A program made the translations under genes and the position numbers. From assembly GCF_055900595.2 (NCBI RefSeq), contig NZ_CM148325.1: a stretch of DNA of 64,000 nt, one strand, 5' to 3'. Below the pieces are notes generated by a model that was given only the letters and a program-made list of their open reading frames with translations, was not told the origin of the DNA and made no database searches. This document shows, piece after piece, positions 2,707 to 55,511 of this stretch. Position 1 is the first letter of the stretch. Each line of letters opens with the position of its first letter.

Positions 2707-3297
2707 TTATTGCTGAAAAATTATACCAATATTGCTCTCGCCCGCCTCACGCAGGTCTGCCCTAAGGCCTTTTATCAGCTCGATATCGCGTTCTTCGCAC
2801 TCAGCTAAAAGTCGGAATATTTCCCACTGAATGTCCCACTCTTGCTCTACAGCTGGGTTTTCTTTGAGCTCTTCATCGCTCATTTCACGGCCAGCCTGAG
2901 TCATTTCCAGCATCGCCACGGTCGTGATGGAGGTCTTACTCACTTCTACCGCGTGTTCGAGCGTTTCGCCACTTAAACGCGAATGGACCAGTTCACTTAA
3001 CGCCACGCAAGCATCGATTGCCGGATAAACGCCGTACAGATCGAAATCGTCGGCTGAAGGAATCGCTTCTTCAAATTTCTCCAGTTGGCTGTCGAAATTT
3101 ACTTTTGCGTCTTTGACGGTCAGCGTTTCCCAGATGAGATCGAGAATACGGCGGTAAATTTGCCCATCACCAAAACCAGTTTGCTGACAGAACATGGCGT
3201 AATTAGGGTACATGCGTTCGCATAAGCAGGCCATAAAAGTGACGTGCTGCCAGCTTTCCAGGCGCTCCAGACGCAGATGAATTGGGTTTTGTAACAT
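2707..3297 (-). CDS. yjaG: DUF416 protein YjaG
   Basis: 196-aa ORF; last gene of the nudC-hemE-nfi-yjaG cluster. Confidence 0.85.
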   Translation of the reverse strand: MLQNPIHLRLERLESWQHVTFMACLCERMYPNYAMFCQQTGFGDGQIYRRILDLIWETLTVKDAKVNFDSQLEKFEEAIPSADDFDLYGVYPAIDACVALSELVHSRLSGETLEHAVEVSKTSITTVAMLEMTQAGREMSDEELKENPAVEQEWDIQWEIFRLLAECEERDIELIKGLRADLREAGESNIGIIFQQ

Positions 3298-42240: not shown

Positions 42241-43140
42241 CACTTTATCGAAATGGCCATCCATTCTTGCGCGGATGGCCTCTGCCAGCTGCTCATAGCG
42301 GCTGCGCAGCGGTGAGCCCGGACGATAAACCAGGCCAATAGTGCGGCGTGGTTCCGGCTTAATACACGGCAAATAAACAACCCCATCGCGTTTACGCTCC
42401 GGCGGCACAGCCAGCGCAGGCAGTAAAGTGATCCCGCTACCTGCCGCCACCATGTTGCGCAGAGTTTCCAGGCTGGTCGCGCGGAAGTGTGTATCTTCAT
42501 CCGCCCCGGCTTCAAAGCAGAAACCCATTGCCTGATCGCGCAAACAGTGACCATCTTCCAGCATCAGCAGTTTTTCCCCTGCCAGATCGGCCATTGGTAC
42601 GCATTCGCGGTTCGCCCACGGGTGATCTTCATAGATAGCCAGCAACATTGGCTCATCAAACAACGGCACTTCAATGAATGCTTCGCTCTCTTTCACCAGC
42701 GCGAGGATCACGCAATCGAGTTTGCCGCTGTCCAGTTGCGCCAGTAACTGGTGGGTCTGTGCTTCATGCAGATACATTTCCAGCTTTGGAAAGGTCTGGT
42801 GCAGCATCGGGATAATATGCGGTAACAGGTAAGGCCCAACCGTGGGAATCAAACCAATATGCAGCGGCCCGGACATTGTCTCGCCCTGCTGGCTTGCCAT
42901 CTCTTTAAGGACTTTCACCTCACGCAGCACGGTACGCGCCTGATCCACCAGCAGCATTCCCGCCTGGGTGAATAACACTTTACGGCTGGTCCGCTCCAGC
43001 AACATCACGCCCAGCTCATCTTCCAGCTTACGAATTTGCCCGCTAAGCGTCGGCTGGCTAACGTGGCAGGAATCTGCCGCACGCCGAAAATGACGGTGTT
43101 CAGCCAATGCCACCAGGTACTCAAGATCACGAATATTCAT
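42223..43140 (-). CDS. oxyR: LysR-family oxidative-stress regulator OxyR
   Basis: Start at [44 protein letters not shown] (305 aa); redox Cys pair (HCLRDQ, HFRATS region). Confidence 0.96.
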
Positions 43141-43235
43141 TATCCATCCTCCATCGCCACGATAGTTCATGGCGATAGGTAGAATAGCAATGAACGATTA
43201 TCCCTATCAAGCATTCTGACTGATAATTGCTCACA

Positions 43236-43347
43236 GAAACGGAGCGGCACCTCTTTTAACCCTTGAAGTCACTGCCCGTTTCGAGAGTTTCTCAACTCGA
43301 ATAACTAAAGCCAACGTGAACTTTTGCGGATCTCCAGGATCCGCTTT
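43236..43347 (+). ncRNA. oxyS: OxyS small regulatory RNA
   Basis: GAAACGGAGCGGCACCTCTTTTAACCCTTGAAGTCACTGCCCGTTTCGAGAGTTTCTCAACTCGAATAACTAAAGCCAACGTGAACTTTTGCGGATCTCCAGGATCCGCTTTTTTTT, divergent from oxyR and ending in a terminator hairpin plus U-run. Confidence 0.93.
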
Positions 43348-43391
43348 TTTTTATTCTACAGGCCCACAGCAAGAGAGCCTGATAGTAACAG

Positions 43392-44675
43392 TTACTCAAT
43401 CCGATCTTTGACAATAAAGAAGTAACACAGCGCCCCGGTGAACGTCACACAGGCCGCGATAACCAGCGCCAGATTAAACGAGTGCGTGGTATCCACTACC
43501 CAACCGGTTACGATCGGAGCAAAGGAAGCAAAAACAAAACTGCCAAAGTTTTGAATCCCGGCGATGGAAGCCACTTTTGTTTCTGACACCATCACCTGCA
43601 CCAGTCCCCATGCAGATGTTCCCGCGAAATGCACGCAGAACAGCGCCATTGAGATAAACGCTACAGCCTGGGCTGGCGAGGAGGATTGCACGACCAGCAA
43701 CGTGCCTAATGCCGACATCATCAAACCGCAGACAATAGCCGTTTTACGCGTCTTCGCCAGGTCGTAGCCTTTTTTCGCCAGCCGATCGACAACAATACCG
43801 TTAACCCACATCCCGACCGCCGCCGCGAGGAAAGGAATCGCCGCCACCCAACCGGTTTTCGCCAGACTGAAGCCTTGCTCGGCTTGTAAATAACCGGGTA
43901 ACCACGCGATGTAGAGCCAACCGGTATAATTGACGCCAGAGAAACCTAAAATCATCCCCCAGGTTGTCCGATGCTTAAACAGCGCCAGCCACTCGCTAAA
44001 TTGTAATTGTGGACGCGGTTTAACCGGCGCGGAGAGATAGGTCCGTTCTTCGTCGGTCAGGACAAACTGCGCCCGGTTGCGATACCACGCGTACCAACAG
44101 ATCCCAACCAGAATCCCCGCCACGCCGATGATGACGAACATTGCCCGCCAGCCCCATGCCAGCTGCATCAATACAAGAGCAGGAGGCGCAATAGCCTGAC
44201 CGATAACGGTAGATGAGTTAAAAATCCCCAGCGCCGTGCCGCGTTCTTTTTGCGCATACCAGTCGGTGATCGACTTTACTCCCGCAGGCATAAATGGCGC
44301 TTCGCCAATACCCAGACCGATACGCATTAAAATAAAGTGGCTAAAAGAATTAACCATTCCTGTTAATGCCTGCATTAATGACCAGAATATTAAGCCTGCA
44401 CCTAAAACTATTCGTGGGCCAAAGCGGTCTAGCAAAATACCGGAAGGGAGTTGTGAAAAACCATAAGACAGAGAAAATGCAGAAAGCAAAACGCCAAATT
44501 CTGTCGCCGATAATCCTAACTCGCCACGAATCGCTTCGCCTGCCACGCTCAATGACGAACGGTCGAGGAAATTAACGATCCCCGCCATAAATAATAAAAC
44601 CAGCGTTACTGTCTGAATACGACGAATCCGTTGCGGTTTATTACCCGCAACACTGGTTGACACATCAACGTCCAT
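43392..44675 (-). CDS. MFS transporter, anion:cation symporter (ACS) family; predicted sugar-acid (aldonate/hexuronate-type) permease
   Basis: 427-aa ORF with 12 predicted TM segments and MFS motifs (DRFGPR; DgoT/ExuT-like); accessory relative to K-12 gene order. Confidence 0.8.
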   Translation of the reverse strand: MDVDVSTSVAGNKPQRIRRIQTVTLVLLFMAGIVNFLDRSSLSVAGEAIRGELGLSATEFGVLLSAFSLSYGFSQLPSGILLDRFGPRIVLGAGLIFWSLMQALTGMVNSFSHFILMRIGLGIGEAPFMPAGVKSITDWYAQKERGTALGIFNSSTVIGQAIAPPALVLMQLAWGWRAMFVIIGVAGILVGICWYAWYRNRAQFVLTDEERTYLSAPVKPRPQLQFSEWLALFKHRTTWGMILGFSGVNYTGWLYIAWLPGYLQAEQGFSLAKTGWVAAIPFLAAAVGMWVNGIVVDRLAKKGYDLAKTRKTAIVCGLMMSALGTLLVVQSSSPAQAVAFISMALFCVHFAGTSAWGLVQVMVSETKVASIAGIQNFGSFVFASFAPIVTGWVVDTTHSFNLALVIAACVTFTGALCYFFIVKDRIE

Positions 44676-44741
44676 TTTTAGCTCCTTGAGCGGAATTAAT
44701 CGATTTGCTGACTATTCAGAAAATAATTAAGCGAACCGTTA

Positions 44742-45956
44742 TTACCAGTTCCACAATGTGCCATCTTCCAGTCGTGCGACGGGGAGATACGCCGGGTCAT
44801 ACGGATATTTCGCCGCCAGTTTCTCATCGAAAGAAATACCCAGCCCCGGTTCATCGCCTGGGTGCATATAACCTTCATCGAAGCGCCAGCTGTGCGGGAA
44901 GACTTCAAGCATTTGTTCGGAATAGCCCATGTACTCCTGAACACCAAAGTTTGGCACCCAGAGGTCAAAATGCAGCGCCGCCGCATGACAAACAGGCGAT
45001 AAATCTGAAGGGCCATGCGAACCGGTACGTACCTGATAAAGCGATGCAAAATCGGCAATCCGTCGCATCCCGGTAATGCCGCCTGCATGGGTAATCGTCG
45101 TGCGAATATAGTCAATCAGCTGCTCTTCGATTAACTGCTTGCAGTCCCAGATACTGTTAAACACTTCACCGACCGCAATCGGCGTCACAGTATGCTGGCG
45201 AATCAGACGAAAACATTCCTGGTTCTCGGCAGGCGTCGGATCTTCCATCCAGAACAGGCGGTAATCCTCTATGCTCTTCCCAAAGCGTGCCGCTTCGATA
45301 GGAGTCAGGCGATGGTGCATGTCATGCAACAGATGTTCGTTAAAACCGAACTTATTACGCACCGCTTCAAATAACTTCGGTGTAAAATCGAGATACTTTT
45401 CTGAAGACCACAACTGCTCTTCCGGCCACAGGCCTTTGGTTGCCGGTTCATACGCCAGTCCTTTGCCCTTCGCCAGGCCATAAGTGGTTTGCATACCCGG
45501 TACACCGCACTGCACACGAATCGCCTTAAAGCCCATCTGCTGGTGCTTTGCATAGTCTTCAAGGACTTCATCAATCGTGCGCCCGGTGGTGTGGCAATAA
45601 ACCATCACGCCTTCACGAGAAGCCCCACCAAGCAGTTGATACAATGGCATATTTGCCGCTTTGGCTTTGATATCCCACAACGCCATATCAATGGCAGAAA
45701 TGGCCGACATCGTGACGGGGCCACGTCGCCAGTAAGCACCTTTATAAAAGAATTGCCAGATATCTTCGATACGACTGGCATCGCGGCCAATTAATTGTGG
45801 ACAAAGATGATCTTTCAGATAAGAAGCGACCGACAATTCGCGACCATTTAATGTGGCATCTCCCAATCCACAAAGTCCGCTTGCAGTGGTTATTTTAAGC
45901 GTAACGAAATTACGTCCTGGGCAAGTAACAAAAACATCTGCAGCAATAATTTTCAT
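44742..45956 (-). CDS. Enolase-superfamily dehydratase, mannonate dehydratase (ManD)/RspA-like subgroup
   Basis: 404 aa from [24 protein letters not shown]...; AGGAG RBS 9 nt upstream; ORF track begins 20 codons earlier. Confidence 0.8.
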
Positions 45957-46346
45957 TATTGCAATCTCCTGTGTTGTAAATAGACGCTTCAAACTTAATT
46001 TTACGCCTACTACCATACAAGAGAGAAAGAGCGATTATTCAACCGTGATCACATTAAAAATAAAAATTTCCACCGAGGAACAAAAATATCCTCAAATCTC
46101 ACCTACACTATTAACTACCATCGTTAAAACAACGTGTTAAATAATCACATAACAAATTCCTTTAAGGAAGGGAGTTATAACAACAACAAAAGATAATCAT
46201 ATTTTACTTAATTCAATACGTATCGATAGGTTTATTTAAAAAGGATTTTTCGGAATGAGAGATGAAAAGAAGATACACAAGCAGGAAGAAATACGATTAA
46301 TATTAGTTGCGGTAAGGGTAGCCGTTCCTCCCTTCCGCAACCCATT

Positions 46347-46443
46347 AACCGTTGAAGTCACAGACTATTTCAGGCATTTCTCAACTCAAAATAACGACAG
46401 CCAACGTGAACTTTATGGCTCTCCAGGATCTGCTTTGTTTTCC
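46347..46443 (+). repeat. Diverged copy of the oxyS 3' portion (oxyS-like remnant), direct orientation
   Basis: ACCGTTGAAGTCAC...TTTCTCAACTC...AGCCAACGTGAACTTT...CTCCAGGATCTGCTTTGTTTT aligns with oxyS 43258-43347 at roughly 80% identity by eye; terminator stem not conserved. Confidence 0.7.
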
Positions 46444-46444
46444 A

Positions 46445-47923
46445 TCAAACAACGGAGCTCAGCGCACTGGCTACCTGTTTAAAGCGAGCAAACCGTCGCC
46501 TGAGCATGTGTGCTTTTTCTACATTCGGTTCAAGACGAATCACGTTGAGCTGCGTAGCCTTCATGGCCTGTTTGAATCCAGAATAAGCCCCTCCTCCTAC
46601 TGCCGCACACATTGCAGCCGCTCTACAACCTGACTGTTCAATATCGACAATTTCAAGAGGCATTTTGCTGGCATCACAAAACATCTGCATCCAGATTCTG
46701 GAATGCGTTGGCCCGCCAGAGAAACGAATCGTTTGCAATGACTTATCAATCTCAATAAGACGGTCCTGATGCAACAAATGAGAAAAGACAATGCCCTGAT
46801 AAATAGCGTACACCAAATCTTCTCTTTTATGATGCCCACACAGCCCCAAAAATCCCCCGCTTAATGCCTCATGGTAATTCGAGCCAAACAACCACGGGAA
46901 AAAGAGAATATCATTCTGCTTCTCATACCCTCGTTCCACCCACTCATTAATCACCCGATAACTGTCAGGAAGATCCGGTAAAAATTGCTGCAAGAACCAT
47001 GTCAAATTACTGGCTGATGTAGGGCTTCCCTCATGGGCGAAAAATGTACCTGGAATGCTAAATTTCCCCCATACATAGGGATAATCAGAAGGAATAATGC
47101 GATCAAAGATTCGCGTTGCAATTGACCAGGTGCCAGCAACCGCACTTAACGTTGTACTGTCATAGATGCCAGAAGTGAGCGCCGCACCAACGACATCAAA
47201 AACACCACCAAAAACAGGCGTTCCGGCGAGAAGCCCACATTGGCTGGCTGCTTCAGATGTCACAAACCCAGCTAAATCAGCGGAGCCAATAATATCGGGA
47301 ACCTTACCCGCAACTTCCTTAATCTCAAATAGGCGAAAAAGTTCAGCATCATAAGCACTGGTATATTGATTATAAAAATTACTGCCTGAAATATTGGTTT
47401 CTTCACAAGCCAGTTTGCCAGTAAGCCGTGAACGTATGTAATCATGAACCATCAAAATGGTTCCGATGCGGCCATAATTGTCAGTCTCATGTTTTTTCAA
47501 CCAATGCAATAGTGCTACAGGGTGCGATGGCCAGAGCTGTTGCAGACTACGGTGATAACTTTCGCGGTCAATTCCTTGTTCTTTCCAGCTTGCAACCAGT
47601 TGTTGTGCGCGAGAATCAGAGGAAACAATGCCGTGTCGTAAGGGCTTACCTTGCCGGTCGAGCAGGTACAAACCTTTACCATGAGCAGAAAAACTGATGC
47701 CATCAATCTGACTCGCAGTAATATTGTTATCTGACATCGACAGTGAAATGACCTGGCACGTTACCTTCCATAACGCCTCCATGTCGCGTTCGCAAAAACC
47801 AGGACATGGGCTTAACAGAGGTAACGCCTGCGAAGAGACACCTATTTCACGTCCTTCTGCCGTATAAATTCCCGCTTTGGTTTCTGTACCACCTAAATCG
47901 ACACCAATAAAATACCGCTCCAT
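46445..47923 (-). CDS. FGGY-family carbohydrate kinase, L-xylulose/3-keto-L-gulonate kinase (LyxK)-like
   Basis: 492-aa ORF; N-terminal FIGVDLGGTETKAGIY and C-terminal FSGGPTHSRIWMQM actin-fold motifs. Confidence 0.8.
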   Translation of the reverse strand: MERYFIGVDLGGTETKAGIYTAEGREIGVSSQALPLLSPCPGFCERDMEALWKVTCQVISLSMSDNNITASQIDGISFSAHGKGLYLLDRQGKPLRHGIVSSDSRAQQLVASWKEQGIDRESYHRSLQQLWPSHPVALLHWLKKHETDNYGRIGTILMVHDYIRSRLTGKLACEETNISGSNFYNQYTSAYDAELFRLFEIKEVAGKVPDIIGSADLAGFVTSEAASQCGLLAGTPVFGGVFDVVGAALTSGIYDSTTLSAVAGTWSIATRIFDRIIPSDYPYVWGKFSIPGTFFAHEGSPTSASNLTWFLQQFLPDLPDSYRVINEWVERGYEKQNDILFFPWLFGSNYHEALSGGFLGLCGHHKREDLVYAIYQGIVFSHLLHQDRLIEIDKSLQTIRFSGGPTHSRIWMQMFCDASKMPLEIVDIEQSGCRAAAMCAAVGGGAYSGFKQAMKATQLNVIRLEPNVEKAHMLRRRFARFKQVASALSSVV

Positions 47924-47939
47924 GATCCCTCCTTAGTTT

Positions 47940-48803
47940 CTAAATATTATCCCAGCCGGCAAAGCGCATTTTCTCTTCAATCCATTGACGTGCATGAATA
48001 ATTTCTAATAGAGGTTCCGTCGCTTTTTCTGTCCACATTTCTATCAGAAACGTTCCGCGATAATTAAGATTACGCAGGATCTTAAATAATTTAATAAAAT
48101 CTACACACCCTTCACCAAAAGGAACGTCACGAAATTGCCCTGGAGAATCAGGCGTTACTGGGTACGTATCTTTAAGATGGATTGCGGCAATTCGATCAAT
48201 CCCCTTTACCAGCTCACTTTCCAGTTCATTACCCCATGCGGTCAGATTGCCAACATCCGGATAAACGGTAAACCAAGGGGAATTAATTTTTGTATCCAGG
48301 ACTTTCCATTTACTAATAGAATTAATAAATGGCGTATCCATGATCTCTACAGCACACATAACTTGTGCCGCTGCGGCCTGTTCAGCTGTCCAGGCCATCG
48401 CATCTTCAAACCAGGCGATAGTTTCTTCATTCTGCGGCTCATAATAAACGTCATAGCCTGCCAGTTGGATTGTTCGAATCCCCAAATCCTGCGCCAGGCG
48501 TAACGCCTTCAACATAATCGTACGTGCCTGCTGACGAGTATCTCTATCATGGCTACCAAATGGAAAACGCCGGTGAGCAGACAGGCACATTGTCGGAATA
48601 CGGATCCCCGTTTGCTGAATGGCGCTAATAAGCTCCATACGCTCGGTGAGCGACCAGTCCAGGCGGGCGAGTCGTTCATCATTCTCATCTACCGACATCT
48701 CAACAAAATCAAAACCGCAAGATTTAGCCAGGGCTAGTTTCTCTACCCAACTGGTATTCCTGGGTAGCGCTTTTTCATAAATACCTAACGGGTGGCGTCG
48801 CAT
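47940..48803 (-). CDS. Sugar-phosphate 3-epimerase, UlaE/SgbU-like (L-ribulose-5-P / L-xylulose-5-P 3-epimerase family, xylose-isomerase-like TIM barrel)
   Basis: 287-aa ORF with LGIYEKALP...GFDFVEMSVDE...LAGYDVYYE...GEG.VDF motifs; start overlaps upstream permease stop. Confidence 0.8.
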   Translation of the reverse strand: MRRHPLGIYEKALPRNTSWVEKLALAKSCGFDFVEMSVDENDERLARLDWSLTERMELISAIQQTGIRIPTMCLSAHRRFPFGSHDRDTRQQARTIMLKALRLAQDLGIRTIQLAGYDVYYEPQNEETIAWFEDAMAWTAEQAAAAQVMCAVEIMDTPFINSISKWKVLDTKINSPWFTVYPDVGNLTAWGNELESELVKGIDRIAAIHLKDTYPVTPDSPGQFRDVPFGEGCVDFIKLFKILRNLNYRGTFLIEMWTEKATEPLLEIIHARQWIEEKMRFAGWDNI

Positions 48804-49849
48804 TATTTTCCCTCACGAGTGATCAATTGTTGTTGAAAGATTTTCCGGCTCTTATTCATGTCACGCTGCAACTGCCATTTTTGTTTGATGAATTTAAATG
48901 CCAGTGCGGCGATCAATGTGATCCCCCATACCGCCAGATTGAAATGCAAACTAAGTCCCAACAGACTAAGGCCGGTAGCAATAACCTGAAGCACAAGTAA
49001 GGCACAAAAAACATGACTGACTTTACCCGCCCCACCGAATGGATCTGTGCCTCCCAATACAATTGCAAGAACCGTCAAGAGCAGATAGGAATCGCCATAG
49101 CCCATACGCGCCGAATTAAATCGCGCGAGCATAATAAGACCTGCTAATACACACAACATGCTGGATATAGCATATATAGCAATTAATACGCGGTCGGTGC
49201 GAATACCGCTAAACCATGTGGCGTTAATATTACTGCCACACATATAAATCGTTTTTCCCGTACGGGTTTTGCCGAGGAACAGAGCTAAAGCAACGGTGGT
49301 GACGATAAAAATTATCATCGGTACTGGGATCCCCATGATAACTTCAGACCCAATACTGCGGACTACTGGTGGCATACCACTTAAAGCTGCCCCCTTAGTC
49401 AGGTAAATACCGATACCACTAATAATGGTCATGCTACCCAATGTGACCAAAATAGGGTGAGCGCCTATATGAGAAATAATTGACCCAGTAATAGCTCCAA
49501 TGATGATGGCAATAAGCATCGCCCCGACAATAGCCAGGAAGAGCCAAAACAACTGACTACCTGTAGATGCATCTGCGGGTACATATTGAATCAACAGCCA
49601 GGCCATAAACAGGCTGGTCAGATTCGCAGTACCGATGATTGCCAGATTGAGCCCCCCGCTCAACATGGGTATAAACATCGCAAACGTGAGCAACCCAAGC
49701 TCTGGCAATTGAAATGCAATGCTCAGAAAAGTATTGCCGGTGAAAAAACGCCCCGGCATTACCAGACTAAATAACACCACCGCAATAAAACATATTGATA
49801 ATAAGCCTGAACTGGTACCATCTAGTGGAAAAAATATCCGCTTGTTCAT
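48803..49849 (-). CDS. Sugar ABC transporter permease (CUT2 / RbsC-like)
   Basis: Polytopic membrane ORF; start taken at MNKRIFFPLDG with GGAGG RBS 6 nt upstream (ORF track starts 10 codons earlier). Confidence 0.8.
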   Translation of the reverse strand: MNKRIFFPLDGTSSGLLSICFIAVVLFSLVMPGRFFTGNTFLSIAFQLPELGLLTFAMFIPMLSGGLNLAIIGTANLTSLFMAWLLIQYVPADASTGSQLFWLFLAIVGAMLIAIIIGAITGSIISHIGAHPILVTLGSMTIISGIGIYLTKGAALSGMPPVVRSIGSEVIMGIPVPMIIFIVTTVALALFLGKTRTGKTIYMCGSNINATWFSGIRTDRVLIAIYAISSMLCVLAGLIMLARFNSARMGYGDSYLLLTVLAIVLGGTDPFGGAGKVSHVFCALLVLQVIATGLSLLGLSLHFNLAVWGITLIAALAFKFIKQKWQLQRDMNKSRKIFQQQLITREGK

Positions 49850-49862
49850 TTCGATCCTCCCG

Positions 49863-50855
49863 TTAGACGAAACCAACATCAGTTTCTTTACGTTTTTTGT
49901 AATGGGTCACACAAATCGCCGAGACAATAACCACTCCAATAACGATATTGACGAAATAACTCGAGATGCCAATCAAATTAAGGCCGTTTTTAAGAATACC
50001 GATAAGAAATACGCCCATAAGCGTACCAATGACCGTACCACGTCCGCCTGATAAACTGGCACCGCCCAATACCGCTGCAGCCAGCACATCCAACTCTCCG
50101 CCAACCAATGCATTCGGCACAACTTCACTCATACGGTAAGCTTGCAGCATTCCACCAATTGCTGCAGCGGCACCAAGATAACCATAAGCAAACAGATAAA
50201 TTAGCGACACCCGAATCCCAATACGTCTTGCTGATTCGGTATTCCCTCCCACGGCATAAAGCTGACGCCCAATATGGGTTTTGTTCATTATCATCCACGT
50301 CAGAAATGCCATTCCCAGCATAACCACTAACGGTAATCCGATCTGGTAATCTTCTCCGCCAAATTCAAAACTCAGGAAAGAACGCTGCGTAATCCACCAA
50401 TCCGGTAAATCGTAAATACTGTGGCCATTAGTCAACCACATCAACATACCGAACAGTAGCGACTGCATACTAATCGTAATGATGATGGAAACGACATTAA
50501 GGTAATAAATAAGAATAGCGTTTATCAAACCAAAAATGATGCCAAGAAAAACAGCAAACACCAGACAGAAAAATGGATTTGATAGCGTTTCATTAAGCAG
50601 TAACGACGCCACAACATATTGCACAACCGAAGCTACTGCTGCAAAAGAGATATCAATTCCGCCAGTAACCAATACGACAAATAATCCGAGGGCGAAAATA
50701 CCCGTTACGGCATAACTTTCCGAGAGATCGAGCAAGTTCTGTATTGATAAAAACTCATCGCTCATGATGGAAAAAAATACCAGCATGAGAACAATGACCC
50801 ATCCTAACCAAGCTTCGACTGAACGAGGAAACCGCAGCCGCATAAAGCTAACCAT
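49863..50855 (-). CDS. Sugar ABC transporter permease (CUT2 / RbsC-like)
   Basis: 330-aa polytopic membrane ORF; start overlaps the ATPase gene stop by 8 nt. Confidence 0.8.
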   Translation of the reverse strand: MVSFMRLRFPRSVEAWLGWVIVLMLVFFSIMSDEFLSIQNLLDLSESYAVTGIFALGLFVVLVTGGIDISFAAVASVVQYVVASLLLNETLSNPFFCLVFAVFLGIIFGLINAILIYYLNVVSIIITISMQSLLFGMLMWLTNGHSIYDLPDWWITQRSFLSFEFGGEDYQIGLPLVVMLGMAFLTWMIMNKTHIGRQLYAVGGNTESARRIGIRVSLIYLFAYGYLGAAAAIGGMLQAYRMSEVVPNALVGGELDVLAAAVLGGASLSGGRGTVIGTLMGVFLIGILKNGLNLIGISSYFVNIVIGVVIVSAICVTHYKKRKETDVGFV

Positions 50856-52365
50856 TAATCACCTCCGCCAACTGCTGCTCGGTATAATTCGAAGGCAACA
50901 GCTCATTAATAATCTTTCCGCGCTTCATATGAAAAATACGATCGCAGTTATAATAAGCTTCTGGTGCTTCATCAGTAATTAATATCACTGAAATACCCAC
51001 ACCTGAAAGCCGATGAATAAGCTGGTAAATACTATCTTTTGCGCCAATATCTACACCTACCGTTGGCGCATCCAGAATTAAAACCTTAGGTCGTGTTAAA
51101 ATCCATTTAGCCAGGACAACCTTTTGTTGATTGCCGCCAGATAGCGTTGAAAGTGGATTATTTGGATCGGTGACTTTAATATCCAAATCCTGGATCCACT
51201 CCTTGACTAAGGTTTCTTTTCGATTTTCATCAATAAACCCCGATGCCGTCTTTAAACGATCCAGAATCGAGAGCACCATATTATCGCTGATAGATTGGGG
51301 TAATACGGCCCCCAGTGTCAGGCGATCTTCTGAAACATATGCTATTCCCAGTTTTACCGCATGCGTGTTGTCTTTAATTGTAACGGGCTTACCTTCCAGA
51401 TAAATATCACCACTATCTGGTCGAGTAATACCGAAAAGACTCAATGCTAATTCAGTTCTCCCCGCACCAAGTAAACCACACAATCCCAGAACCTCGCCCT
51501 GGTGTAGTTTTAGAGAAACATCTTCAAATTGCCCTTTTCTGCATAATTTGTTTAGTTCAAGGACTACTTTGCCTTCAACGCTATTTGGTAGCTTCTTCTG
51601 GTGGACTATAGTTTTTCCGGTCATTAACTCAGTAATATCGCCCGGAGAAAGTTGATTGGCAGCCCACGTTCCAATTATCTCTCCATCACGGATGACCGTA
51701 ATCCGATCTGAAATTTCCTTAACTTCATCAAGGCGGTGGCTAACAAAAACTACGGTAATATTTTTATCGCGTAAGTAATTCACTGTGCGTAGTAATTGAT
51801 TAACTTCTGTACGCGTCAATGATGCCGTTGGCTCGTCCATGATGACTAAGCGGGCATCGGCAATCAGAGCCCGGCAAATCGCGACCTGTTGGCGTTGTGC
51901 AATCGGCAAATGTTGTACTAACGCATCAGGATCGAGATTGAATTGCAGCTCCTGAATTATTTTCTGCGATACATCTCGAAGTTGTTTTTTTCTGTGCAGC
52001 CCTAAATATCCCTTCAGGTTGTATTCAAAAGCGATATTTTCAGCAACAGAAAGATTTGGGAATAAAGAAAGATCCTGATATATCACCTGAATACCCAGTT
52101 CCCGAGCTTTATCAGGAGAAAGACGAGTCCAGGACTTACCATCTATAATAATTTCACTTCCCGAATCAGGGACATAAACACCACACAGCGTTTTGATCAG
52201 AGTACTTTTACCACACCCATTCGCACCAGCAAGACAATGAACCTCACCTTTATTTAAGGTAAGATTGATATTCTTTAGAGCCCTATGGCCACCGAAACTT
52301 TTCGTTAGTGACCTTAGCGTCACTAATGGTTGCTCCGCATTCTTCTCTATAATATGAGGCATCAT
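50848..52365 (-). CDS. Sugar ABC transporter ATP-binding protein with two fused nucleotide-binding domains (RbsA/MglA-like)
   Basis: 505-aa ORF; Walker A GANGCGKST in the N-terminal domain, ABC signature LSGGNQQKVVLAKW in the second. Confidence 0.85.
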   Translation of the reverse strand: MMPHIIEKNAEQPLVTLRSLTKSFGGHRALKNINLTLNKGEVHCLAGANGCGKSTLIKTLCGVYVPDSGSEIIIDGKSWTRLSPDKARELGIQVIYQDLSLFPNLSVAENIAFEYNLKGYLGLHRKKQLRDVSQKIIQELQFNLDPDALVQHLPIAQRQQVAICRALIADARLVIMDEPTASLTRTEVNQLLRTVNYLRDKNITVVFVSHRLDEVKEISDRITVIRDGEIIGTWAANQLSPGDITELMTGKTIVHQKKLPNSVEGKVVLELNKLCRKGQFEDVSLKLHQGEVLGLCGLLGAGRTELALSLFGITRPDSGDIYLEGKPVTIKDNTHAVKLGIAYVSEDRLTLGAVLPQSISDNMVLSILDRLKTASGFIDENRKETLVKEWIQDLDIKVTDPNNPLSTLSGGNQQKVVLAKWILTRPKVLILDAPTVGVDIGAKDSIYQLIHRLSGVGISVILITDEAPEAYYNCDRIFHMKRGKIINELLPSNYTEQQLAEVING

Positions 52366-52392
52366 AATATTCCTGAATACGACTAAAGGAAT

Positions 52393-52412
52393 TCCGGGTC
52401 AAATTTGACCCG
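52393..52412. promoter_or_regulatory. Perfect 20-bp palindrome (intercistronic stem-loop) between binding-protein and ATPase genes
   Basis: CCGGGTCAAATTTGACCCGG within the 63-nt gap. Confidence 0.5.
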
Positions 52413-52428
52413 GTGATTTACAGTAAAA

Positions 52429-53433
52429 TTACAAGCCTAGCTTCACTAAACGTCGTGTATTTTCAAGATCGAGCTTTTCTGGATTATCACTATAAATAGT
52501 GTTGTTATTAACCTTGATCTCGCCCATATCACCGATTTTTACACCGTCTTTAATAGGTTCACCGTTCATCATTGCCGTCGCAACCTGGACAAAAACCTTA
52601 CCCGCAATCATAGGGTTTGAAATATATCCCCCATCAATGGCACCTTTTTCGAGTAGCTTAATTCCCTGACCTGGAGTGAAGGTTCCAAAAACGCAAATTG
52701 CATCATTTTTCTTCCGCTTATCAATAGCACGCCCCGCACCAATTGGTCCTTGTGAACCAAATGACATAATGCCTTTAAGATCTTTATATTTAGACATTAA
52801 ATCGTTCGTCGTGCGCATTGAATCATCCACCGACTCAGCAACACCAAAACGATCTTCAACCAACGTCATATTTGGATAATGTTCTTTTTGATAGGCAATC
52901 GCGGCATTGGCCCAGTCATTTACCAAAGGCACAGTCAGACTGCCGACAAACATGGCGTATTTACCTTCTTCGCCCATACACTTCGCCATATCTTTCATAT
53001 GATTGGCACCCATTGTCTGGGTATTTAACAACTCAAAATCCCAATCTGCATTTTTTTGATCTGGTGATTCGTGGGTAATAACTTTAATACCGGCTTCTTG
53101 TGCACGCTTAAGTACAGGTTCAAGAACCTTTGCATCGTTAGGAACAACACCAATAACATCCACTTTTCGTGCAATTAAATCTTCAATCGCCCGAACCTGT
53201 TCAGCTGGATCTGCCGTTGTAGGGCCGACCTGCCATGCATCAACCCCCAATAGTTTTCCTTCATTTTTAATGCCTTGTTCCATCACATTAAACCAGGGAA
53301 TTCCACCGACTTTTACTACTACCCCCATCGTAAAAGGTTTATTCGCTTTTTGTGATGTTACAGTCTGATCAGCCCATGCAGCAGTGGAAGATAATACGGT
53401 AGCAATAAGGCAGGGTAAGATTAATTTTTTCAT
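52429..53433 (-). CDS. Periplasmic sugar-binding protein (type I PBP, RbsB-like)
   Basis: 334-aa ORF with signal peptide MKKLILPCLIATVLSSTAAWA; first gene of the ABC operon. Confidence 0.85.
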   Translation of the reverse strand: MKKLILPCLIATVLSSTAAWADQTVTSQKANKPFTMGVVVKVGGIPWFNVMEQGIKNEGKLLGVDAWQVGPTTADPAEQVRAIEDLIARKVDVIGVVPNDAKVLEPVLKRAQEAGIKVITHESPDQKNADWDFELLNTQTMGANHMKDMAKCMGEEGKYAMFVGSLTVPLVNDWANAAIAYQKEHYPNMTLVEDRFGVAESVDDSMRTTNDLMSKYKDLKGIMSFGSQGPIGAGRAIDKRKKNDAICVFGTFTPGQGIKLLEKGAIDGGYISNPMIAGKVFVQVATAMMNGEPIKDGVKIGDMGEIKVNNNTIYSDNPEKLDLENTRRLVKLGL

Positions 53434-53461
53434 CGTAATTTCCTTAAGAAATAGTTCAGGT

Positions 53462-53493
53462 GTCAGGAAAACTCGATATAATATCGACCTGAC
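53462..53493. promoter_or_regulatory. Nested inverted repeats in the binding-protein promoter region, candidate operator for the adjacent DeoR regulator
   Basis: GTCAGG-AAAAC-TCGATATAATATCGA-C-CTGAC, 36 nt upstream of the binding-protein start. Confidence 0.35.
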
Positions 53494-53555
53494 TATTTAT
53501 ATAATTTATAATCCCTTAGGCATTGATTAATAATTTAGACAATAAATAACGCCTA

Positions 53556-54365
53556 TTATTTATCAACCTCCACAATGTTTAATTGTGGAAATTGTGTTCG
53601 ATACCGAGTATCTGTACAAACATTAGTCACCAGAATATCGATTTCATCCAGCGTGCATATTTTACTAAATGCATACTGTTCAAACTTAGTGGAGTCGACC
53701 AGCAATATTTTTTGTCCTGACACCTGAAGCATCACCTGTTTAAGTCTGGCATTAATTTCACTGCCATCGCGGACACCATTCCCCAGATTCAACCCCTGGC
53801 ATGAAAAGAAAAAACTGTTGATTTGAAAATTTCGGATCGCACTCTCTGCAACCGGGCCATGAAAATCATCATGTCGCTCAGAATACTCACCACCGATACC
53901 AATAATTCGAACTCGATCACGGCAAGCTAACGCCTGAATTATCCGTAATGAATTTGTAACTACGGTAACATCTATATCGGGAATTTGACGAGCTAAAAAC
54001 CAACAAGTACTACTGTTATCCATTAAAATACAATCACCAGGGTGAATAAATTGCAATGCGGCCTTCGCAATTCTGGCTTTTATATCAGGATTTTCTTCAG
54101 TCCGTTTACGGAATGATTCCGCACGATCGATACTATTATCTTGCCACGCATTATCGGCGAGCATAACCGGAGCGCTATCAGATGAATCCAGAGCGACCGC
54201 GCCACCAAAGCTACGGATTAACTTTTTGTTGCGCTCCAGTACCGTTAAATCCCGACGAATTGTCTCAGGAGACGCTTTAAATAATCGTGATAATTCAGTT
54301 ACCCGCACAGCACCTTGTTTTTGTACATGTGCGCATATCATTTTATGGCGCTCTGCCTGCAACAT
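53556..54365 (-). CDS. DeoR-family transcriptional regulator
   Basis: 269-aa ORF with N-terminal HTH (VRVTELSRLFKASPETIRRDLTVLE) and C-terminal DeoR sugar-binding domain. Confidence 0.85.
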   Translation of the reverse strand: MLQAERHKMICAHVQKQGAVRVTELSRLFKASPETIRRDLTVLERNKKLIRSFGGAVALDSSDSAPVMLADNAWQDNSIDRAESFRKRTEENPDIKARIAKAALQFIHPGDCILMDNSSTCWFLARQIPDIDVTVVTNSLRIIQALACRDRVRIIGIGGEYSERHDDFHGPVAESAIRNFQINSFFFSCQGLNLGNGVRDGSEINARLKQVMLQVSGQKILLVDSTKFEQYAFSKICTLDEIDILVTNVCTDTRYRTQFPQLNIVEVDK

Positions 54366-54744
54366 AGTATCGGTCCGTTATTATCAAATTAGCATGCTTA
54401 TATAATTAACTGTTCCCTCATAAAATAAAGTGATAGGAATCAAGATTCATTTTATAATTATAATCGCAAACAGGAATGGTGATCTTTATCACAAATTAAA
54501 TTGAGAACACTCTACTATTTGACATTACTTTGAGATATCGGTCACTAAATAAGTCTTATTCTGCCATCTAACGAAAAATTTAAATACAAAAACAAAAATA
54601 ATCGGGCATAGCAATCGCTTCCATTCATGACCGAATACGCCCGAATAAAACCGTTTATACCCACTTATCCTCTTTCGTTGCCTTCTTACATGCCTTGAAT
54701 ATTTTACATTTCTTATATTCAGCGTAATTTAGGAAACATAATTT

Positions 54745-54816
54745 ATGAGCAAAAAAAGCCCAAACTCAAAAGTTAAAGTTTATTTATATAATACATACAG
54801 ATTATCGTGGAGTTAA
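54745..54816 (+). CDS. Candidate 23-codon upstream ORF ([23 protein letters not shown])
   Basis: AGGAAA 8 nt before the ATG; TAA stop ends 2 nt before the 4-epimerase ATG; no homology claimed. Confidence 0.25.
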
Positions 54817-54818
54817 AA

Positions 54819-55511
54819 ATGGATATGCTAAAGGAAAAAGTTCTTGCTGCGAATTTATCATTACCCCTTCATCAGTTAGTGACGTTTACCTGGGGAAATG
54901 TTAGTGGTGTTGATCGCGAAAAAGGTGTCATGGTTATTAAACCTTCTGGGGTCGAATACAGCCAAATGGGCATTGCAGATATGGTGGTAGTGGATTTACA
55001 AAGTGGTGAAGTTATTGATGGACACAGGAAACCCTCTTCAGACACCGATACTCATCTGGCGCTATACCGTGCTTTCCCGGATATTGGTGGTATCGTTCAT
55101 ACCCATTCCCGACACGCCACAATATGGGCTCAGGCCGGAAAAGATCTCACGGCCTTTGGGACAACCCACGCTGATTATTTCTACGGCACTATCCCCTGTA
55201 CACGCCCCATGAAGGATGACGAAATTAATGGACAATATGAATATGAAACGGGGCGAGTGATTATTGAAACGTTCAGACAACGAGAAATATCTCCCGCTGA
55301 CATTCCGGCTGTTTTAGTAAACAGTCATGGCCCCTTTGCCTGGGGAACTGATCCCGCGAACGCCGTGCATAACGCCGTTGTACTTGAAGAAATTGCCTAT
55401 ATGAATCTCTTTACACAACAACTACAGCCCCATCTTACGGCTATTCAACAGCCTCTACTGGATAAGCATTTTTTACGCAAGCATGGTGCCAATGCTTATT
55501 ACGGGCAGTAA
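54819..55511 (+). CDS. Class II aldolase-family L-ribulose-5-phosphate 4-epimerase (AraD/SgbE/UlaF-like)
   Basis: 230 aa from [34 protein letters not shown]...; GGAG RBS 6 nt upstream; HTHS and HADYFYG motifs; ORF track uses a GTG at 54807. Confidence 0.85.

Follow-up and report, generated by a model that had tools for sequence, protein, structure and literature searches.

A strain-variable manD-transporter operon between oxyS and argH of Escherichia coli as a probable transplanted piece of the rsp system

What does a dehydratase-transporter gene pair that has no regulator of its own do between oxyS and argH in Escherichia coli, and what controls it? The question arises in the window, by which we mean the whole 64,000-nucleotide stretch of DNA analyzed here (NCBI RefSeq assembly GCF_055900595.2, contig NZ_CM148325.1). 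Its source is an E. coli chromosome, and positions 43000 to 46600 match strain Z0117EC0005 at 100%. In window orientation, the RefSeq record gives the gene order fabR, sthA, oxyR, MFS transporter, manD, FGGY-kinase island, and argH-argB-argC, and the two genes of interest are already named "ManD" and "MFS transporter" there. We refer to the dehydratase gene as manD2. Comparison with other enterobacteria points to an origin of the pair in the rsp system, with a promoter that resembles that of rspA. The two genes and their translation signals are the following.

44742-45956, minus strand: manD2, 404 amino acids, D-mannonate dehydratase and RspA paralogue (NCBIfam match, RefSeq annotation)
45966-45970, minus strand: manD2 ribosome-binding site AGGAG, 9 nucleotides ahead of the ATG at 45956
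44676-44741, minus strand: 66-bp intergenic spacer, containing the ribosome-binding site of the transporter gene
44682-44687, minus strand: transporter ribosome-binding site AAGGAG, 6 nucleotides ahead of the transporter ATG
43392-44675, minus strand: MFS transporter gene, 427 amino acids (open reading frame list, RefSeq annotation)

A preliminary description of this DNA had read the two genes as a minus-strand pair, dehydratase first and transporter second, with 66 bp between them; both open reading frames are intact, and the gap is exactly of that length. The dehydratase start that it gave, 46016, lies 60 nucleotides too far upstream. The functional start is the ATG at 45956 (MKIIAADVF...), which is annotated in RefSeq, is preceded by AGGAG, and is common to the orthologues, all of which have 404 amino acids. 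The ATG of the longest open reading frame (46016-46014) falls within TTGTATGG, the -35/operator core of the inferred manD2 promoter. The AT-rich upstream region, described as about 430 bp long, measures 428 bp from 46016 and 488 bp from 45956 to the stop of the next gene at 46445. Both genes are genuine and are not chance open reading frames, because of the ManD model score, an annotated E. coli chromosome that matches the region at 100%, and a ratio of nonsynonymous to synonymous divergence (dN/dS) of 0.01 to 0.02 within E. coli. No regulator is encoded in the module according to the RefSeq annotation, and a search of the leader for open reading frames returned only unsupported ones of 20 to 95 amino acids, which rules out a small regulator gene within these 488 bp. 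We infer that manD2 and the transporter gene form a single transcription unit. The core motif of the rsp promoters is not present in the 66-bp spacer, a consensus scan gave no promoter there, and the weak hairpin over the manD stop (44751-44733) is no more than chance would produce.

Over residues 1 to 404, ManD2 matches the NCBIfam equivalog model for ManD (NF043051) with 731.5 bits (cutoff, 550) and reaches 806 bits against NF011654 (cutoff, 430); PF02746 and PF13378 are present on its orthologues. It has 91% amino acid identity to the crystallized RspA of E. coli CFT073 (PDB 4IL2). The oxyR-linked copy of CFT073 (C_RS23255), on the other hand, is 99% identical to the ManD2 of the window, so that 4IL2 is the rsp-locus paralogue and the ManD2 copy is one without a solved structure. 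The catalytic base dyad of ManD is reportedly Tyr159-Arg147, with His212 as the acid, and the metal ligands of the Novosphingobium enzyme are said to be D210, E236, and E262, at the ends of barrel strands 3 to 5. R147, Y159, and H214 (D-x-H) of ManD2 are identical to those of 4IL2, and its putative metal-ligand carboxylates D212, E238, and E264 are spaced 26 residues apart like the Novosphingobium set, at an offset of 2. With R147, Y159, D212, H214, E238, and E264 all present, the earlier placement of the dehydratase in the ManD subgroup, which belongs to the enolase superfamily, held up under this residue check. Enzymes of this kind convert D-mannonate to 2-keto-3-deoxy-D-gluconate (KDG), which is then used by KdgK and Eda, and ManD2 is predicted to carry out the same dehydration.

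ManD2 shares its length, its catalytic residues, and its promoter architecture with E. coli RspA (encoded in rspAB) but differs from it in its site. Whereas rspA lies between ynfA and ydfJ, next to the gene for the dehydrogenase RspB, manD2 lies between oxyS and argH, next to the gene for a transporter of the ACS family. Since manD2 is not located at the position between ynfA and rspB/ydfJ, and the true rspA is found elsewhere in the same genomes, ManD2 is a paralogue and not an orthologue of RspA. The rsp-locus RspA proteins of E. coli, Kluyvera, Raoultella, and Cedecea are 91 to 94% identical to ManD2, with 77 to 81% identity at the DNA level, and synonymous divergence (dS) is about 2 against both of the genes tested, E. 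coli rspA and its Kluyvera counterpart. This dS, together with the roughly equal distance of ManD2 from all genera, rules out a recent duplication of E. coli rspA. Judged from these comparisons, ManD2 is best described as an ancient paralogue or xenologue of RspA, in keeping with the earlier suggestion of an RspA paralogue away from the rspAB locus (E. coli rspA is 91% identical in amino acids and 80% in nucleotides, and dS is saturated).

The transporter is most similar to K-12 LgoT (YjjL), with 56% amino acid identity over the full length (E = 4e-173), followed by DgoT (33% over residues 13 to 424; E = 4e-57), which is the nearest protein with a solved structure (PDB 6E9N/6E9O), and by RhmT/YfaV (23%). 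PF07690 has been assigned to a protein identical to it. Its best NCBIfam model is that of the D-galactonate transporter subfamily, TIGR00893, with 275 bits; this score is below the cutoff of 395 and therefore argues against the label of a DgoT-type galactonate transporter. In DgoT, Asp46 and Glu133 serve in proton coupling, Arg47 and Y79 bind the carboxylate, and Q164, Q264, and S370 contact the hydroxyls of galactonate (PMC6532931). The transporter conserves D46, R47, Y79, E133, and N393 of DgoT, with D46, R47, and E133 corresponding to its own D38, R39, and E125. On identity and conserved residues, it appears to be an ACS family member (TC 2.A.1.14) of the LgoT-like sugar-acid:H+ symporter type, and the preliminary assignment to the sugar-acid transporters of this family is retained. 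Both LgoT and the window protein are of the proton-coupled sugar-acid symporter type, but the window protein is 26 residues shorter at its N terminus, its identity to LgoT is just 56%, and neither lgoD nor lgoR was found near its gene. We regard it as a paralogue of LgoT rather than an orthologue. Six ACS transporters have been counted in E. coli K-12 (2026 preprint), and the protein described here would be a seventh, strain-variable member in E. coli. The possibility that it is a paralogue of YdfJ, the transporter of the rsp locus, was ruled out, as identity is only 27% and YdfJ belongs to the MHS family.

The origin of the pair is indicated by the location of the transporter in other enterobacteria. 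Raoultella, Klebsiella aerogenes, Pluralibacter, Cedecea, and Kluyvera each have an orthologue at about 87% identity (86.9 to 87.4% in the three genera that were compared directly), and in every case examined in these five genera the gene is inside the rsp locus, with rspA and the GntR/FCD regulator gene rspR nearby. Raoultella, K. aerogenes, and Pluralibacter have the order ynfA, MFS, rspA, rspB, ydfJ, ydfI, and then rspR and ydfG; Cedecea has the same locus with the MFS gene placed after ydfJ. The Kluyvera order is rspA, MFS, ydfI, usp, and rspR, which is the dehydratase-then-transporter arrangement of the window. The rsp locus of E. coli itself comprises rspA, rspB, ydfJ, ydfI, and rspR and is without this transporter. 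The oxyS-argH module can therefore be understood as the relocated two-gene core of an rsp-type locus. In the five other genera, RspA and the transporter are encoded together, and the same promoter core motif is present, but the pair is embedded among rspB, ydfJ, ydfI, and rspR, while the E. coli module consists of the two genes with the regulator gene at a distance. The preliminary description had taken the pair for a minimal sugar-acid uptake and dehydration unit. A sugar-acid pair it does seem to be; because the orthologues of the transporter are rsp-locus genes elsewhere, however, it probably adds a branch to the rsp system for L-gulonate or D-mannonate rather than forming a self-sufficient pathway.

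The upstream region of manD2 provides the second line of evidence for an rsp origin. Its elements are listed here.

45992-46020, minus strand: inferred promoter, with -35 TTGTAT at 46015-46020, a 17-nucleotide spacer, and -10 TAAGTT at 45992-45997 (homology to the mapped rspAp)
46009-46024, minus strand: RspR-operator-like element TCTC-TTGTATGGTAGT, with the right arm and core of the RspR box kept and TCTC in place of ATAC
46045-46053, minus strand: TGTGATCAC, a CRP-type half-site 23 nucleotides upstream of the operator core, as in rspAp, with its center at about -60.5
45957-46165, minus strand: manD2 upstream region, about 97% conserved among E. coli strains with or without the FGGY island (alignment)

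RspR has been footprinted on rspAp, where its box, ATACnnGTAT, overlaps the -35 element and transcription starts 30 nucleotides before the ATG (Shimada et al., PMC8249747). CRP and RspR sites at rspAp are likewise referred to as known in a Reg-Seq preprint (bioRxiv 10.1101/2025.05.13.653802). The otherwise dissimilar leaders of manD2 and E. coli rspA have in common TGTGATCAC, 23 nucleotides, and CTTGTATGGTAGTAG. We anchored 13 promoters on TTGTATGGTA, namely, four of E. coli manD2, five of rspA, and four of rsp-locus MFS genes, and found TGTGA about 32 nucleotides upstream of the invariant core TTGTATGGTAG in all 13. This 11-mer occurs 18 times in the approximately 320 kb of fetched loci, each time directly upstream of rspA, an rsp-locus MFS gene, ydfI, or manD2; within the 64-kb window, it occurs once, and the 13-mer CTTGTATGGTAGT is unique. 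All rspA promoters have ATAC-TT-GTAT followed at once by GGTAG, of which manD2 keeps TT-GTAT-GGTAG. At the position of the RspR box, the window has TCTCTTGTAT, in which the right arm and the core TTGTATGGTAG are present and the left arm is not; this loss of the left arm distinguishes the manD2 promoter from that of rspA. The left arms at the rsp-locus MFS and ydfI promoters are also degenerate (ATTC, GTCC, and CTTC). The predicted transcription start of manD2 is near 45985, and its -10 hexamer TAAGTT is identical to that of the rspA promoter of Kluyvera. TAAAAT was considered as an alternative -10 element and rejected, since at 11 nucleotides after TTGTAT its spacing is impossible, while TAAGTT at 17 nucleotides matches the Kluyvera promoter.

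Given an rspAp-homologous promoter, a TGTGA half-site, and a core that overlaps the RspR box, RspR is probably the "missing" regulator of the module, together with CRP. The manD2 operon would then be under the control of RspR (YdfH) and CRP in trans, and 5416 of the 5426 E. coli genomes have rspR. The earlier supposition that control comes from elsewhere in the genome agrees with the lack of a local regulator, and these two proteins can now be put forward as candidates for it. RspR has been published as a single-target regulator in K-12. In Raoultella (L005, 13193-13203) and K. aerogenes (L011, 10555-10565), TTGTATGGTAG is also found ahead of ydfI, a gene of the mannitol dehydrogenase family, and the RspR regulon of these two organisms appears to consist of three transcription units.

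In all, 1860 of the 5426 complete E. coli genomes (about 34%) have the pair between oxyS and argH. Carriers include EC18 and the uropathogenic strain CFT073 (C_RS23255 and C_RS23260). Genomes of the K-12 and O157:H7 types are without it, and their match to our query is restricted to query positions 1 to 353, ending at window position 43352 just past the oxyS terminator. The dN/dS values of 0.01 to 0.02 indicate strong purifying selection on both genes, and their dS, 0.09 to 0.11, is the same as for oxyR, the core gene next to them. The module is thus an old, selectively maintained resident of the carrier lineages. Neutral decay is excluded by these dN/dS values; a silent but maintained state may be compatible with them. 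Reading frames, ribosome-binding sites, and the promoter core are intact in all four E. coli strains examined. Literature searches with the RefSeq protein accessions, or with manD in combination with mannonate and uropathogenic, found nothing, and searches on an oxyR/argH island returned irrelevant papers only.

How the module might work can be proposed from these data, and we lean, with a little more confidence than doubt, toward an accessory copy of the rsp core, expressed as one rspAp-like unit under RspR repression and CRP activation and serving in the import of L-gulonate or D-mannonate and in dehydration by ManD2. RspR, encoded at the rsp locus, would repress manD2 and the transporter gene in trans, and cyclic AMP-CRP would activate them. 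The LgoT-like proton symporter would import a hexonate, most likely L-gulonate or D-mannonate. L-Gulonate would be converted to D-mannonate by RspB and YdfI/UxuB, encoded elsewhere, and ManD2 would dehydrate D-mannonate to KDG, from which KdgK and Eda would feed central metabolism. The rsp genes reportedly encode a pathway in which L-gulonate is turned by way of D-fructuronate into D-mannonate and then KDG. LgoT carries L-galactonate, of which L-gulonate is the C3 epimer. LgoD reportedly also oxidizes L-gulonate (Kuivanen & Richard, 2014). A homologue of LgoD, RspB, is encoded in the same loci as the orthologues of the transporter, and we accordingly name L-gulonate and D-mannonate as the candidate substrates.

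Several observations weigh against an accessory rsp core. The RspR palindrome has lost its left arm (TCTC versus ATAC), and RspR may therefore bind weakly or not at all. A search upstream of manD2 for a full CRP site (TGTGA-N6-TCACA) was negative, the left half-site alone being conserved. A consensus scan of the same region detected no sigma-70 promoter, and for this reason the promoter was proposed by homology to the mapped rspAp alone. The transporter has the same MFS fold as DgoT but departs from it at four positions (Y44F, Q164T, Q264F, and S370G), the last three of which are hydroxyl contacts of DgoT that are replaced by T, F, and G. Ten substitutions are private to ManD2, and since two of them, K156Q and M161L, flank the catalytic Y159, its efficiency and specificity are not readable from RspA. 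Finally, the RspA of CFT073 is reportedly a low-efficiency ManD and the L-gulonate pathway is said to be "cryptic"; that CFT073 carries the module argues against a simple role in growth on L-gulonate.

The main rival, which we consider possible but doubtful, is a self-contained D-mannonate unit in which the substrate is imported directly and dehydrated by ManD2, RspB and YdfI are not needed, and RspR is perhaps uninvolved, with control by CRP only or constitutive expression. The module does hold just the two genes that this route requires, KdgK and Eda are already present in E. coli to take the product, and the Kluyvera rsp locus, which is without rspB, nonetheless retains rspA followed by the MFS gene. 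The loss of the left arm of the RspR box at manD2 also counts in favor of this explanation; the retention of the invariant rsp core motif there counts against it. In four of the five other genera, moreover, the orthologous transporter is accompanied by rspB and ydfI, and free D-mannonate is not known as an abundant nutrient. LgoT, the closest relative to have been characterized, transports strictly an L-aldonate (bioRxiv 10.64898/2026.05.20.726482), which also speaks against a unit dedicated to D-mannonate.

That the module is cryptic or a relic with no current role, silenced for instance by H-NS on its leader of 35% GC and encoding a low-efficiency enzyme, seems quite unlikely to us. The AT-rich upstream region, the absence of the module from two thirds of E. 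coli, K-12 and O157:H7 among them, and shortened transporters of 388 to 399 amino acids in some E. coli database entries would agree with it, as would low-efficiency ManDs, which reportedly are without an identifiable physiological role. Against it stand the dN/dS of 0.01 to 0.02 in both genes, across strains whose synonymous divergence is the same as in the neighboring core gene, and the frames, ribosome-binding sites, and promoter core that remain intact in the four strains. We give still less credence to another acid sugar as the substrate, such as D-gluconate or a further aldonate, or to the historical "starvation-sensing/homoserine-lactone" role, in either case with a transporter that carries the matching compound. 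Members of the ManD subgroup are said to vary in their specificity for D-mannonate and D-gluconate, and both the ManD2-specific substitutions beside Y159 and the hydroxyl-binding positions of the transporter, unlike those of DgoT, leave some room for such a substrate. An identity of 91 to 94% to the rsp-locus RspAs and a score far over the ManD cutoff, however, place ManD2 in the D-mannonate-specific enterobacterial cluster, and no enzymology is known to back a homoserine-lactone activity.

The surroundings of the operon contain further strain-variable elements and two copies of oxyS.

43236-43345, plus strand: genuine oxyS (Rfam OxyS, 139.5 bits), convergent with the transporter gene and forming the oxyR-side edge of the insertion
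46345-46441, plus strand: decayed second oxyS copy, consisting of the 3' 85 nucleotides and the terminator (Rfam OxyS, 30 bits for a hit at 46312-46434; gathering score, 75)
46445-55511 (L001, 23446-32512): nine-gene FGGY island (RefSeq annotation)

The noncoding leader of manD2 (45957-46444) has a GC content of 35.0%, compared with 50.6% for the whole window, and its distal part holds the decayed oxyS copy. This relic, at the edge of the FGGY island, is 81% identical to the true oxyS over 98 nucleotides (BLASTN; E = 5e-20) at a distance of about 3 kb. It has a 12-nucleotide insertion and broken stems and is not followed by a T-tract on the minus strand; as its 30 bits are also below the gathering score of 75, it is unlikely to be a functional small RNA or the terminator of the kinase operon. 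In Citrobacter amalonaticus, the same FGGY island is flanked by argH and by a genuine oxyS-oxyR (oxyS, 95 bits). Because the island adjoins a genuine oxyS there, the relic can be explained as what remains of an oxyS formerly next to the FGGY island, and it is not part of the function of the operon. In strains without the FGGY island, the match to the query ends at query position 3166, corresponding to window position 46165. EC18, which has no FGGY island, shows by eye a palindromic repeat of REP/BIME-type appearance in the argH-manD2 spacer (L002, 11380-11440) and not the oxyS relic.

Genes of the FGGY island include those for an FGGY kinase, an L-ribulose-5-phosphate 3-epimerase, two ABC permeases, an ABC ATPase, a substrate-binding protein, a DeoR regulator, and a divergent AraD-type 4-epimerase. 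The relatives of the kinase are named L-xylulokinase or 3-keto-L-gulonate kinase, its closest homologues outside E. coli (Citrobacter, Brenneria, and Serratia) are at most 70% identical, and the gene content of the island suggests a pentulose pathway of the L-xylulose type. Just 145 of the 5426 genomes have the island, which, in those checked, is always beside manD2. In CFT073, two extra genes, for an M20 aminoacylase and a citrate-proton symporter, are inserted between sthA and fabR (L013, 30896-33421); the window strain is without them, and the neighborhood thus has several strain-variable slots.

On the minus strand, no intrinsic terminator was predicted from the kinase stop to manD2 or from the transporter stop to oxyS/oxyR, so that read-through into manD2 and transcription antisense to oxyS are possible. 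The transporter gene and oxyS are convergent and only 46 bp apart (43346-43391), and the oxyS terminator hairpin (43326-43344) has no T-tract on the minus strand. Transcripts of the manD2 operon may therefore run antisense through oxyS into oxyR. In K-12, transcripts of argH could likewise run antisense through oxyS.

The module is an ordinary sugar-acid operon of a known kind that had already been annotated, and it does not represent a new kind of system; the significance of the finding is modest. What is new here is the derivation from the rsp locus, a specific regulatory hypothesis involving RspR and CRP, and a candidate substrate class. A further extension, which we put forward as speculative and unlikely, is that the transporter supplies an uptake step that is absent or has been lost from the E. 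coli rsp locus. The "cryptic" L-gulonate pathway would then be functional in those strains, about one in three and including CFT073, that have the module; RspR, published as a single-target regulator in K-12, would govern two operons; and the oxyS-argH hot spot, which in 145 genomes also holds the L-xylulose-type island, would gather pathways for L-gulonate and L-xylulose, both of which belong to the mammalian glucuronate-xylulose cycle as intermediates and occur in urine. In more general terms, a strain-variable E. coli operon annotated merely as "ManD" and "MFS transporter" can be presented as a transplanted piece of the rsp system, and L-gulonate or D-mannonate can be proposed as the candidate substrate class of an uncharacterized seventh ACS transporter that is present in CFT073. 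The module is relevant to the purpose of the "low-efficiency" ManD enzymes, and it suggests that outside K-12 RspR may have more than one target.

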